A stretch of DNA of 64,000 bases from Dictyostelium discoideum (taxonomy: Eukaryota), in the NCBI GenBank assembly GCA_000004695.1, contig CM000150.2, positions 2,080,001 through 2,144,000 on the forward strand, given 5' to 3'. Positions 19,013-52,590 of this stretch are shown in pieces. The position numbers and the translations under genes were made by a program. The notes under the pieces are model-generated. The model did no database searches and was not told the DNA's origin. It saw only the letters and a list, made by a program, of their open reading frames with translations. Numbering within the stretch: position 1 is the stretch's first letter; the number at the start of each line of letters is the position of its first letter.

Positions 19013-19321
19013 AATAATCTTTATATATTTATTTATTTTTTAATATTAACAAGTTTTTAATAATAATAATATTAATAATAGTAATATTAATAATAGTAAT
19101 AAGAATAATAATGATTAACAAACAATAATAATTATTTTAATTATTAATTTATTAGTTTTATATTTTAGAGTTTTCGTTCGAAACTTATAAAAACTGAAAA
19201 AATGAAAAAAATAAGTTGATTCAAGCTTTACAGCATTCATATAATATTTTAATTGTGTGTTTATTTTTTATTATGACCATCCGGATATCCGAAGTTCGGA
19301 TTTCCATTTTACAGCAAAAAG

Positions 19322-19393
19322 CTCCCTGTCCGGGAATTGAACCCGGGCCTTTCGCGTGACAGGCGAAAATCCTCACCACTAGACCAACAAGGA
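19322..19393 (-). tRNA. tRNA-Asp (anticodon GUC)
   Basis: The minus strand reads TCCTTGTTGGTCTAGTGGTGAGGATTTTCGCCTGTCACGCGAAAGGCCCGGGTTCAATTCCCGGACAGGGAG. This gives a cloverleaf with A/B boxes (TAGTGG, GGTTCAATTCC) and a CTGTCAC anticodon loop. It is near-identical in layout to metazoan tRNA-Asp. Confidence 0.9.
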
Positions 19394-19469
19394 TGATTTT
19401 GTGATTTCTTTTTATTTTAGCCCGGAAATAAAGGTTTTAATTACAAACTAATTCTTAAAAATTAGTTTG

Positions 19470-19543
19470 TATTCAGAGCGGGAATCGAACCCACGACCTA
19501 ATCCGTGTTAAGGATTCGTGATAACCGACTACACCATCCGAAC
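19470..19543 (-). tRNA. tRNA-Val (anticodon AAC)
   Basis: The minus strand reads GTTCGGATGGTGTAGTCGGTTATCACGAATCCTTAACACGGATTAGGTCGTGGGTTCGATTCCCGCTCTGAATA. Anticodon stem AATCC/GGATT with loop TTAACAC. T-arm GTGGG TTCGATT CCCGC. The acceptor stem has two G-U pairs. Confidence 0.85.
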
Positions 19544-23445: not shown

Positions 23446-24623
23446 TTAGAAAAAATTGGAAAATATACTTCGACTTGTTTCTCAATAATATGAATAACTT
23501 TAACTTCAATGCCAAGTTCATGTAAATGACAACCAAATAAAGTATTTAAATCATGGCAAACTGATCCTGAATTATTAATCAGCAATTCCCTAATAACAAT
23601 ATCAATTTCTAATGATAAAGTTCCGCCTATAACTATAATTACAAAATGGAAAAACCGTTGCAAATCTTAATTGTAAGAATTCAATATCTTTTAAAGATTT
23701 TATATATTTAAATTTAATTTGTTAAATATTAACTCTTTAATATTAATATTTTTTTCTATACAAGTTTTTCATATTGAATTATAATCCATTTTATTTTTTA
23801 TTTGATATTTTTAAAATATTTTGGAAAATAAAAATTTCAAAAAATTTTTTATTTTATAAATCACAATAGTAGTTATTTTTAAAATTAATTAAAAAATATA
23901 TTAAAAAATATAATATTTATTTGTGAAAAATAAAAAATTAGGTGTTAATTTTTGAAAAAAAGGTGTTTTGGGGTGTAAAAAAAAAATAAAAAAAATAAAA
24001 AAAAACGTCAACCCCATACAAATACAAAACACCTTTTTTTCGACACCTAAATTTTAATTATTCACGTTTAAATTAAAAAAAAGTCTTCATTATTTGCACA
24101 CGTGTGCAATAATAATAAAAGTCAATAAAAAACAAATTAATTTGAAAAGGATCTCAAAAATTTAATTTTGAAAATTTAACCCTTTCATTTAATTCGGATT
24201 TTATAAAACGCGTTAACTATTTAATTATAATCGTAAATAATTATTTGTTTAAAGTTTTTTTTAAAATTTTAAAAGAGAAATTTTTTTTTTTTTTATTTTA
24301 ATTAAAATTGTTAGATTGGAGATTTCAAAAAAATGATAGATTAAATTAGGAATAGTGTGCAAGTTAGAAAATTAGATCTAAATTTCTAACTTTTTGTTTT
24401 TTATTTATATTTTTTTTTTTTTGTTTTTTTTTTTAAAAAATTAATACCTTAAATTTGTTATTTGTTTTTCAGATTTTAATTTTTATTTGTTATTATTTTT
24501 TTAAAATATTAATTTTAATTAAATTATTTTTGAGATATTTTTAATTATAATTTAATTAAATTTTTAAAATAATAAAAAAAAAAATAAAAAAAAATAAAAA
24601 AAAGTATTGTTTTTTGGTAATAC

Positions 24624-47908: not shown

Positions 47909-48143
47909 ATGAAAATTTTACAATCTTTTTTACTTGTGCTACCAATTTTATTTTCAATTTGTTTATTTGTTGCGTCATTAATTACAAATATCGATTTAAA
48001 AACCAAAATTCAAATTAAATCAGTATTTTTTAAATTTACAAAGATTATAAGTATTGGTTTTTATATTTTCCATATAATTTCATGTTTTTATTGGGTATTT
48101 AGTATTGGAGGTGTAAATATTGGAAATAGTTCTATTATTAATT

Positions 48144-48190
<47 letters not shown>

Positions 48191-48811
48191 TATAATTATA
48201 ATAATGAAATAATAAAATATAATGAAATTCAAAATAAATTAACAAGCAATGAATATAATGTTAATAATGAAAATGATGAATTTTTAAAAATGGCAACCAC
48301 ATCATCATCATCATCATCAAATTTACAATTAAAAATGGATTTATCAACATCAACATCATCAACAAAATTATTAATTAATGGTATTAATGATAATGCAAGT
48401 TATAGATACTATTTTAAATTATTAATTCAATCTGTTAAATTTTATCAATTCAATGATACAATTATAATTTTAATACCATTAATATTTGCAGCGATTTCAA
48501 TAATATTTGTATATTTAAAAAATTCATTGGTTAATAGAATTTTATTTATTAAAATCCAAGGATTTAGAAATGAAACACCTGCAGGTTATGATGTTTTAAT
48601 TAGAGTTTTATATATTTTCATGTTTGTTTTCATTTTAATAATTGGTCATTTTGGTAATTTGGTTTGTTTAAAAGTTAATGCTTTTGAAAAAATTGGAATT
48701 TGTAGTTATCATCATAATAATAATAATAGTTTTTGGTATTATCAAGGTTTTATAAATACACTTTATTTAGTATATGGTTATCCTTTATATGAATTGGTTA
48801 ATTTAATTTAA
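47909..48811 (+). CDS. Hypothetical multi-pass membrane protein (300 aa) with poly-N and poly-S inserts
   Basis: Uninterrupted ORF. Several hydrophobic segments (LLVLPILFSICLFVASLI, IISIGFYIFHIISCFYWVFSIGGV, IIILIPLIFAAISIIFVYL, IFMFVFILIIGHFGNLVCL). No conserved domain recognised. Confidence 0.45.
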
Positions 48812-49177
48812 ATTTTAATTAATTATAATAAAAAAAAAAAAATGTATATATAAATAAATGTAAATAATCAATCTAATAATAAATAAATAAAAAATAATAG
48901 ATAATAAAAAAATAAAATAAATGTAAAATAAATGTAAAATAAATAAAAAAAAAAAAATTTAATTATTCTTTTTTTTTTTTTAAAATGCAATATATGGATT
49001 GTTTTTTTTTTTTTTTTTTAATTTATTGAGTAAAAAAATGAAAAAATTAATAATTAATTGAAAAACTTATCAAATTGTAAAAAAAAAAAGTTGGGATTAT
49101 GGTTTAAACCATAATCAGTTTTTAAAAAATAAAATTCTTGTTTTTTTAAGTTTTATTGTTTTTAAGTCAGTTATTTG

Positions 49178-49217
<40 letters not shown>

Positions 49218-49298
49218 AAAAAAATATGATCAAAACAATACCATTTTTGTTTTGGTGTAATATTTAAAACATTTGTGTTTCAGTGTAATATCTAAAAA

Positions 49299-49663
49299 AT
49301 GTCATTTTTATGCTCAGAAAATTCATATCAACAACAAAGTAAAATATCAATTGATATTGACAAATCTCTAAAAAATCATAAATTAAAATTAGAGGAAGAA
49401 ATAAGAGTATTAATTTATGGGCAAAAGAAAGTTGGTGTAACAACACTCTTTAAAACTTTTTTGTTAATGGGTGAAAGCCAAATAACACCTGAAGAATTAA
49501 TGGATAATAGAAATAATGTTTATAAAACTATAATTAACCAATTAAAAAAATTCATTATTATTTCAAATAATTCAAAAATTGAATTAGAAAATAATAATAA
49601 TATTGTAATTATTTATTTTATATTTTAAATTTTATTTTTCCCTACTTTCATAGTTACTAATAA

Positions 49664-49718
<55 letters not shown>

Positions 49719-50540
49719 ATGATAGCAAATGTCAAATTTAATATTGGAATTAGATAGTGAGAATTTTTTATGGAATAAAGAAATTGGAGAAACTTGTTTA
49801 AAACTATGGAATGATTCAGGTATTCAAAAAATATTTCAAAGTCAATTTAGTGAGTTTTTTGGTTATTTCTTTAAACATTTACAACGTATATCAGATGAAA
49901 ACTATACTCCAACACCTCAAGATTTAAATTTTATAAAACTTACTCAAAATGGTATAATTGAAGGTAAATTCACTTTTGAACGTTGTCTTATAAAAATGAT
50001 TGAAATGGGTATACAAACTTCAACTTTAAAGAAATGGATTAACTGTTTTAGTGAAGTCCAAGCCATAATATATGTCATTGATTTATCAGTGTAAGTAATT
50101 ATTTTTTTTTTTAAAAAAAAATAAACAATAATAATTAAAATAATAATAATAATTAAAATAGGTATGATATAGTTGAAAGTGAAGATTGTTCAAAATCAAT
50201 AAATAAATTAGAAAAATCTTTAAATGGGTTTAAAGAAATTATTGAATCAAAATATCTTCATGGTTGTGGAGTGATTGTATTTTTCAATAAAAAGGATATT
50301 TTTAGAGAAAAGTTAAAAACTGTACCATTTAAAACCTATGATAAAGATTACATTGGTGAAAATGATTTTGAATCCACAACAAATTTCATTAAAAATAAAT
50401 TACTTGATTATTATTCAAATCCAAATAAGAATGTCTATTTTTTGATTAATGAAGAATCTGAAGTTGATATTTGTAGGAGTACATTCAATATTTTAAAGGA
50501 TATTGTTCTCAACATAACATATAATTCTGTAAAAAATTAA
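49299..50540 (+). CDS. Heterotrimeric G-protein alpha-subunit family member with degenerate P-loop and switch motifs (about 349 aa). Exons 49299..49604, 49726..50090, 50162..50540
   Basis: The three exons align collinearly with G-alpha. Exon 1 EIRVLIYGQKKVGVTTLFKTFLLMGESQITPEEL... replaces GAGESGKST with GQKKVGVTT. Exon 2 LWNDSGIQKIFQSQFSEFF...NYTPTPQDLNFIKLTQNGIIEGKFTF...KMIEMGIQTSTLKKWINCFSEVQAIIYVIDLS has MIEMGIQTS in place of the DVGGQRSE switch II. Exon 3 VYDIVESED...HGCGVIVFFNKKDIF... retains NKxD. Donors GTAATT at 49605 and GTAAGT at 50091; acceptors AG at 49724-49725 and 50160-50161. Confidence 0.7.
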
Positions 50541-50596: not shown

Positions 50597-50633
<37 letters not shown>

Positions 50634-50760
50634 TGTTTTCTTTTTTTTTTTTTGTTTTTGTTTTTGTTTTTTTCTTTTTTTTTTTTTTTTTTTCTTTTTT
50701 CTTTTTTCTTTTTTTTTTTAATTTTTTTTTTTTTTTTTTTTTTTTCCAGGTTTTGAAAGT

Positions 50761-52590
<1,830 letters not shown>

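Follow-up and report, generated by a model that had tools for sequence, protein, structure and literature searches.

The gene gpaJ of Dictyostelium discoideum lies at positions 49299–50540, on the plus strand, of a 64,000-nucleotide stretch of the forward strand of contig CM000150.2 (GenBank assembly GCA_000004695.1, positions 2,080,001 to 2,144,000; hereafter the window), and encodes G-alpha 10, a member of the heterotrimeric G-protein alpha family in which four of the five GTPase motifs are degenerate. Taking the evidence together, we consider that G-alpha 10 is probably a nucleotide-independent pseudo-GTPase G-alpha derived from its paralogue G-alpha 6. An earlier reading of the locus, made by a model from the DNA and its open reading frames without database searches (the sequence-only reading), had described a G-alpha with substituted motifs and likely a non-canonical or pseudo-GTPase, and this description is upheld by the fold, by the loss of motifs G1, G2, G3 and G5 and by the fixation of that loss among orthologues. 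What is gained is a sharper, testable hypothesis on a catalogued gene and not a discovery.

An exact-sequence look-up matched the spliced product, over 349 of 349 amino acids, to XP_646975.1 (EAL72990.1; UniProt Q55EP5) of D. discoideum AX4, which NCBI names 'G-protein subunit alpha 10' and UniProt 'Guanine nucleotide-binding protein-like alpha-10 subunit'; the '-like' in the latter already marks the protein as atypical. The gene name gpaJ for G-alpha 10 is given in PMC12849267. The locus is therefore an already catalogued gene, which answers the question, left by the sequence-only reading, of which of the Dictyostelium G-alpha proteins it might be. That reading had also allowed for a known canonical G-alpha of exactly this sequence that binds GTP: the sequence does belong to a known G-alpha, but the searchable literature holds no report that G-alpha 10 binds GTP, no paper that assays its nucleotide binding and none that names it a pseudo-GTPase.

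The coding sequence of 1050 nucleotides (nt) is divided among three exons on the plus strand, and the exon structure proposed from the sequence agrees with the annotated gene model, the translation being identical to XP_646975.1 from end to end. Exon 1 (49299–49604) carries residues 1–102, that is, the N-terminal helix, strand beta1, the degenerate P-loop, helix alpha1 and the first part of the helical domain. It is followed by intron 1 (49605–49725; 121 nt, GT..AG, 8% GC, phase 0) and by exon 2 (49726–50090; 365 nt), which encodes residues 103–224 with the helical domain, the switch I remnant, beta2-beta3 and the switch II remnant. Intron 2 (50091–50161; 71 nt, GTAAGT..AG, 6% GC, phase 2) precedes exon 3 (50162–50540), in which residues 224–349 and the stop codon supply the remaining Ras-like domain, the NKKD motif, the G5 remnant and helix alpha5. 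Intron 1, whose length ranges from 93 to 121 nt between species, also includes ~14 units of a (TAAA)n microsatellite at 49664–49720.

Membership of the G-alpha family is supported at the level of both sequence and predicted structure. The Pfam G-alpha profile PF00503 matched the protein with 263 bits (cut-off 48.8, E=5e-78), residues 15–339 covering profile positions 2–333 of 333, and the best sequence matches among solved structures were Gi/Go alpha subunits (E ~1e-42 to 1e-45), the first of which, 7ts0, is a 'Dominant negative Go alpha'. An AlphaFold2 model built from a 27-sequence alignment reached a mean predicted local distance difference test score (pLDDT) of 81.5 and a predicted template modelling score of 0.69, and showed the N-terminal helix, the Ras-like sheet and the helical insert, with helices and strands in the order expected for a G-alpha. 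Termini aside, the 10-residue blocks of lowest confidence were those over switch I (pLDDT 66) and switch II (pLDDT 54). When the model was compared with the PDB using Foldseek, alpha chains of Gi, Gq and Gt were retrieved at E ~1e-24 to 1e-26 (down to 3e-26) and a template modelling score of ~0.6; the heterotrimer-state structures 6crk and 1gp2 led the matches, and 5tdh, the G203A/A326S mutant of Gai1, was among them. G-alpha 10 is a true, full-length member of the heterotrimeric G-protein alpha family in which the two-domain fold has been kept.

The state of the GTPase motifs was assessed by alignment to Gai1, and substitutions are given here in Gai1 numbering. In this alignment G1, G2, G3 and G5 are degenerate and NKKD is the sole G box surviving in D. 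discoideum. The P-loop GAGESGKST of Gai1 corresponds to GQKKVGVTT (G1; G41-Q-K-K-V-G-V-T-T49, 49419–49445, plus strand), with the changes K46V, G42K, E43K and S47T, so that Val47 occupies the position of the Walker A lysine. In switch I (G2; K173-L-T-Q-N-G-I-I180, 49936–49959, plus strand), RVKTTGI is replaced by KLTQNGI, which removes both the arginine finger (R178K, now Lys173) and the Mg ligand (T181Q). In switch II (G3; E195-M-G-I-Q-T-S-T202, 50002–50025, plus strand), DVGGQRSE has become EMGIQTST through D200E, G203I and R205T, and the catalytic glutamine (Q204) is retained as Gln199. The G4 motif N266-K-K-D269 (50286–50297, plus strand) is intact. TCAT of G5 is replaced in its entirety by N320-E-E-S323 (50448–50459, plus strand), which places a glutamate at the A326 position, and the helical-domain 'NDS' lid of Gai1 is SEF in G-alpha 10. 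In terms of consensus motifs, Walker A, RxxTxGI, DxxGQ and TCAT are all absent and only NKxD is present; a GTPase fold that has lost its consensus G motifs is what would be expected of a pseudo-GTPase.

Most of these substitutions had been called correctly from the DNA alone: the exchange of the Walker A lysine for valine, the loss of the second glycine and the arginine of switch II, the change of TTGI to QNGI, and the retention of both NKxD and the catalytic glutamine. The replacement of the catalytic Arg178 by Lys173 had been overlooked, and the pairing of TCAT with CRST was a mis-alignment, as TCAT pairs with NEES and CRST lies 5–6 residues later, at the start of alpha5. The lack of Gly2 was likewise seen correctly, the N-terminus being MSFLC. 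This lack is not peculiar to G-alpha 10, as the canonical paralogue G-alpha 6, from which the N-terminus is inherited, begins with MAFLC and shares it.

A word-indexed search with the single protein, which reached only close orthologues and not G-alpha 6, returned five orthologues besides that of D. discoideum. Their BLASTP identities to D. discoideum G-alpha 10 were 82% and 70% for two genomes of D. cf. discoideum, 66% and 65% for two of D. citrinum, and 61% for D. dimigraforme; three D. discoideum assemblies are also present in the cluster of G-alpha 10 at ≥90% identity. In all six orthologous genomes the open reading frame is intact and encodes 349–356 amino acids. Three orthologous loci (L001–L003) were compared with the window gene at the DNA level, giving four species in all. 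The three-exon layout, the GT-AG introns and the position and phase of each intron are kept in four of four genes, exon 2 always measuring 365 nt. The three orthologous loci are syntenic with the window, and in every one of them a convergent minus-strand gene lies downstream of G-alpha 10. In the window this neighbour, directly downstream of gpaJ, includes part of a PDEase_I domain at 51024–51476 on the minus strand (Pfam, E=4e-35), with further exons beyond; the PDEase_I assignment holds for the window gene and L001 only.

Degeneration of the motifs is itself largely fixed. Val47, Asn177-Gly178 and Gly197-x-Gln199 are invariant in the six orthologues, as are Q42, K44 and T48 within the P-loop remnant. 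Other positions have moved: the residue at the Asp200 position is Glu in D. discoideum and Asp in some orthologues, and that at the Gly203 position is Ile or Thr. NKKD is still present in D. discoideum, D. dimigraforme and one of the two D. cf. discoideum genomes, and has drifted to SKKD in D. citrinum and to DKME in the other D. cf. discoideum genome. Erosion of the former nucleotide pocket is therefore continuing within the species complex. The D. cf. discoideum protein with DKME (KAM9993537.1) also carries a 6-residue insertion in the P-loop remnant (KQQKKSVPTSDRSTT) and has lost the first P-loop glycine.

The protein as a whole has nevertheless been preserved by selection. Between species, dN/dS calculated by the Nei-Gojobori method was 0.35–0.48, in all cases below 1 (Fisher test against 1, p 4e-9 to 7e-6). 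With intact open reading frames, GT-AG introns and dN/dS below 1 in the deeper pairs, gpaJ does not have the properties of a non-functional pseudogene. Cumulatively, these data point to a gene that is maintained by purifying selection under relaxed constraint, in which the former nucleotide pocket is not what selection preserves.

What is preserved instead can be read from the 149 of 349 positions that are invariant among the six orthologues, since these are clustered. Conservation is densest at residues 271–303, from alphaG to alpha4 ('...EKLKTVPFKTYDKDYIGxNDFESTTNFIKNK'), followed by MSFLC at the N-terminus and, within the N-terminal helix, the motif IDKS; NGxIE in the switch-I strand and KKWxxCF, which forms the C-terminal half of switch II, are retained as well. 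Conservation is lowest in alpha1 (49–63) and at the C-terminus of alpha5 (329–349), where the last ~20 residues also vary in length. In canonical G-alpha subunits alpha1 and alpha5 carry receptor binding to the nucleotide pocket and so drive nucleotide release. The poorly conserved end of alpha5 suggests that G-alpha 10 may not be coupled to receptors. Further, of the 12 switch-I/II positions that we take to be G-beta contacts in the Gai1 and Gat heterotrimers (structures 1GP2 and 1GOT), 9 are identical in G-alpha 10; we treat this count as a lead and not as a test.

For the origin of the gene, 1.8 billion representative proteins were searched with a HMMER profile. The G-alpha 10 family came out as one cluster at 50% identity, with a score of 639 bits, after which scores fell to 232 bits. 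In a second profile search, which gave named matches and whose profile included distant members, the next in rank was the dictyostelid G-alpha 6 (gpaF) clade, with members from Heterostelium, Tieghemostelium, Acytostelium, P. violaceum, D. purpureum, D. firmibasis and D. dimigraforme; it took the profile searches to reach G-alpha 6. The 90%-identity cluster of the D. dimigraforme representative holds D. discoideum G-alpha 6 (XP_639172.1; P34044) together with G-alpha 6 orthologues from the genomes that carry G-alpha 10. At 41% identity, G-alpha 6 is the nearest paralogue of G-alpha 10 in D. discoideum. The two proteins are of the same length class, both begin with M-x-F-L-C (MAFLC in G-alpha 6, MSFLC in G-alpha 10) without Gly2 and have in common a KLK.VPFKTYDK.Y.GEN block; they differ in that G1–G4 of G-alpha 6 are canonical (GAGESGKST, RVTTKGI, DVGGQRSQ, NKKD), and G-alpha 6 scores 389 bits against PF00503 compared with 263 bits for G-alpha 10. 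Both introns fall in the same alignment column and in the same phase in the two genes, and G-alpha 10 is therefore a DNA-level duplicate of the G-alpha 6 gene.

This duplicate has evolved fast. In pairwise MAFFT alignments to the D. discoideum proteins, which give identities 1–2 points higher than the BLASTP values, the two D. cf. discoideum genomes retain 99% and 97% identity in G-alpha 6 and 84% and 72% in G-alpha 10; the corresponding values are 95% and 94% versus 68% and 66% for the two D. citrinum genomes, and 91% versus 61% for D. dimigraforme. Protein divergence of G-alpha 10 is thus roughly 4–13x that of G-alpha 6 in the same genomes.

In a neighbour-joining tree the six G-alpha 10 sequences (100% bootstrap) were nested within the G-alpha 6 clade, where they joined P. 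violaceum KAF2071602.1 with 99.5% bootstrap. The latter is a divergent protein of the G-alpha 6 clade, with 33% identity to G-alpha 10, and resembles it in that switch I, switch II (DINVQ) and G5 are degenerate; it differs in having an intact P-loop lysine (GQSGSGKTT). Its highest raw identity, 45%, is to the G-alpha 6 of P. violaceum itself. KAF2071602.1 may be an independent duplicate of G-alpha 6 joined to G-alpha 10 by long-branch attraction, which is likely to have affected this grouping, or it may be a distant G-alpha 10 orthologue. If it is independent, degenerate copies would have arisen from G-alpha 6 more than once.

After duplication of gpaF at the DNA level and fast evolution leading to gpaJ, the residues that serve the phosphates and Mg2+ (the P-loop lysine, the switch-I threonine, and the aspartate and glycine of switch II) have been lost, as have the arginine finger and the G5 loop that contacts guanine, with the G-alpha fold being retained. 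Based on these findings, we hypothesize that the protein neither binds guanine nucleotide physiologically nor hydrolyses GTP, and would consequently not be switched by receptors; in our judgement it is very probable that G-alpha 10 has no physiological affinity for guanine nucleotide and does not serve as a receptor-operated switch. It would act instead via nucleotide-independent protein–protein contacts that are still under selection. Candidates for these contacts are the alphaG-alpha4 face formed by residues 271–303, the KKWxxCF segment of switch II, and Ile179 and Glu181 of switch I, which are G-beta contacts in canonical G-alpha. A further candidate is the N-terminus, where M1 S2 F3 L4 C5 is invariant in the six orthologues and Cys5 (codon 49311–49313, plus strand) is a candidate S-palmitoylation site.

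A permanently 'off-like' G-alpha 10 might then hold, or compete for, G-beta-gamma or another G-alpha partner in the manner of a natural dominant-negative. A decoy that engages or competes for the single G-beta-gamma is a possibility that we put forward only tentatively. More doubtful is the full form of the proposal, in which G-alpha 10 would be a natural, nucleotide-free dominant-negative, palmitoylated on Cys5 and constitutively bound to G-beta-gamma or to another G-alpha partner, tuning all signalling by G-protein-coupled receptors (GPCRs).

Precedents for such behaviour exist. The closest functional analogues are the plant XLG1–3 proteins, which have a G-alpha fold without the nucleotide-binding and catalytic residues, and XLG2 in particular. 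Arabidopsis XLG2 lacks nucleotide-binding residues and binds GTPgammaS 100–1000x more weakly (bioRxiv 10.1101/795088), yet it still binds G-beta-gamma and RGS, whether or not nucleotide is present, and has been proposed to sequester G-beta-gamma as a decoy or dominant negative (bioRxiv 10.1101/795088; PMC8584482). The XLGs differ from G-alpha 10 in carrying a long N-terminal extension, G-alpha 10 being a bare 349 amino acids, and in having a separate origin, as G-alpha 10 nests in dictyostelid G-alpha 6; moreover, G-beta-gamma binding is known for XLG2 and is a proposal for G-alpha 10. G-alpha 10 is thus an analogue only and not a member of the XLG family. A second comparison is with engineered dominant-negative Gi/Go subunits (Gai1 G203A/A326S, 5tdh; DN-Go, 7ts0), at whose mutated positions G-alpha 10 is also altered: G203 is Ile, A326 is Glu, and the P-loop is changed. 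In contrast to G-alpha 10, the engineered subunits keep the P-loop lysine, the arginine finger and most of the pocket, still bind nucleotide weakly, and have an alpha5 C-terminus competent for receptors, a segment that is not conserved in G-alpha 10. By analogy, the coincidence at G203, A326 and the P-loop, together with the XLG2 precedent, makes the decoy attractive.

Several observations weigh against the proposal that G-alpha 10 is a functional, nucleotide-independent regulator. A nucleotide-free G-alpha is usually unstable. D. discoideum G-alpha 10 has kept Gln199 and NKKD, with Lys44 invariant in the P-loop remnant, so that nucleotide binding of some unusual kind is conceivable. The residues at the G-beta contacts also pack the fold, so that their conservation is not specific to G-beta-gamma binding. 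The closest pair of orthologues gave a dN/dS of 0.71, which is indistinguishable from 1 (p=0.29); constraint on G-alpha 10 is relaxed, and dN/dS is high for a signalling protein. No G-alpha 10 orthologue from D. firmibasis or D. purpureum was present among the named matches of the profile search, and gpaJ is either dispensable in these close relatives or was overlooked there. In the literature, a 2025 phylogeny includes G-alpha 10 in its 'twelve conventional G-alpha subunits' (PMC12849267), and G-alpha 10 used as a yeast two-hybrid bait against RACK1 showed no interaction (PMC4094278). The latter is the only interaction test of G-alpha 10 that we found in the searchable literature, in which there is no biochemical, genetic or functional study of the protein.

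Some of these points would be expected if gpaJ were a redundant copy of G-alpha 6 without a specific function, which, with selection relaxed, is losing its motifs neutrally and turning into a pseudogene. We regard this as unlikely, though it has to be taken seriously: protein divergence 4–13x faster than that of G-alpha 6, a closest-pair dN/dS not distinguishable from 1, the motif erosion ongoing in the orthologues, the absence of D. firmibasis and D. purpureum orthologues from the named profile-search matches and the lack of any phenotype or function in the searchable literature all fit such a fate. A gene in neutral decay is, however, difficult to reconcile with open reading frames that remain intact at 349–356 amino acids, with both introns and their GT-AG boundaries kept in the three loci examined, and with dN/dS significantly below 1 in all deeper comparisons. 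Moreover, the 149 invariant positions are not scattered but clustered in residues 271–303, the N-terminus and KKWxxCF, and even the degenerate motifs show conservation and not random change, as illustrated by Val47, Asn177-Gly178 and Gly197-x-Gln199.

Retention of parts of the pocket raises the opposite possibility, namely that G-alpha 10 is a non-canonical binder whose rearranged pocket accommodates GTP or GDP at low affinity, or another nucleotide. Lys44 (or Lys43) could then replace the Walker A lysine, and Gln199 and NKKD could give some switching. Relocated catalytic lysines are known elsewhere, for example in the WNK kinases, and the invariance of Q42, K44, T48, G197 and Q199 across the orthologues, the NKKD motif left intact in three of the genomes and the conservative nature of Thr48 as a substitute for the Mg-binding Ser47 are all consistent with it. 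We nonetheless find it distinctly improbable, given that four of the five G boxes have been hit together, including the Mg-binding Thr181, Asp200, Gly203 and the entire G5 loop, and that neither the drift to SKKD and DKME nor a 6-residue insertion in the P-loop is expected of a nucleotide pocket under selection. Further, alpha1 is among the least conserved segments, and XLG2, whose losses are milder, is already a 100–1000x weaker binder.

That the gene model is an annotation artefact, with the real first exon, carrying a canonical GxGxxGKS and making an ordinary GTPase, lying elsewhere (the case that the sequence-only reading had named as fatal to its own interpretation), is scarcely credible. 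Nothing was found in its favour, and a different upstream exon supplying the P-loop can be ruled out: a scan of the entire 64-kb window in six frames gave no GxxxxGK[ST], exon 1 is a single open frame whose alignment to Gai1 runs unbroken through the N-terminal helix, beta1, P-loop and alpha1, the MSFLC exon 1 is found in all orthologues and its intron position is common to G-alpha 6, and the losses in switch I, switch II and G5 sit in exons 2 and 3 regardless.

Dictyostelium is a main model for GPCR-driven chemotaxis, and a single G-beta-gamma serves its twelve G-alpha subunits. If G-alpha 10 does work without nucleotide as we propose, one of the twelve would be a built-in buffer of, or competitor for, G-beta-gamma and not a transducer, and the description 'twelve conventional G-alpha subunits' (PMC12849267) would have to be qualified. 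There would then also be, beside the plant XLGs, a second and convergent case of a decoy G-alpha, in an amoebozoan in which knockouts and live imaging are easy. Should the P. violaceum protein prove independent too, this would suggest that G-alpha subunits have repeatedly turned into pseudo-GTPase regulators.

Two features of the DNA upstream of gpaJ had been pointed out by the sequence-only reading. The direct repeat, which it had placed 24 bp before the ATG, is real but lies elsewhere, being a tandem duplication of a 28-nt unit (49242–49269 and 49270–49297, plus strand; 24 of 28 positions identical), with only 1 nt between its end and the ATG. In D. cf. discoideum, D. citrinum and D. dimigraforme the core of the repeat is single-copy (…TTTGTGTTTCAGTGTAATA…ATG), and the duplication is therefore recent and specific to D. 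discoideum; its interpretation as a paired binding site was rejected on these grounds. The ~20-nt core beside the ATG is partly conserved and may belong to the 5' untranslated region or the core promoter.

The perfect palindrome of 22 bp, reported about 180 bp upstream, is present in the intergenic DNA at 49095–49116 (GATTATGGTTTAAACCATAATC), its end lying 182 nt from the ATG. It is unlikely to have arisen by chance, since a first-order Markov model predicts ~0.025 palindromes of equal length and G+C content in 64 kb; as RNA the sequence folds into a hairpin with z = -3.2. It matches no Rfam family, and none of the three orthologous loci has it, even though the sequence on its right side can be aligned with that of the closest relative, L001. 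A role as a conserved regulatory site was rejected because the palindrome is missing from these loci, and neither it nor the repeat supports a regulatory claim. Long homopolymer tracts, which are typical of Dictyostelium intergenic DNA, flank gpaJ on both sides, with ~45 A upstream (49180–49215) and a T-rich tract of >100 nt downstream (50598–50750).

The neighbour upstream of gpaJ (47909–48811, plus strand) is an open reading frame of 300 amino acids with hydrophobic segments, a long poly-Asn run and no Pfam match; in the orthologous loci, too, the genes at this position lack Pfam matches. Elsewhere in the window, ARAGORN and Rfam identified two adjacent tRNA genes on the minus strand, tRNA-Asp(GTC) at 19321–19393 and tRNA-Val(AAC) at 19469–19543, which are the only Rfam matches at gathering level in the window. 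Finally, a perfect 16-nt palindrome with a CACGTG core and 8 G/C (TTGCACACGTGTGCAA) at 24094–24109 is the most G+C-rich palindrome of the window.

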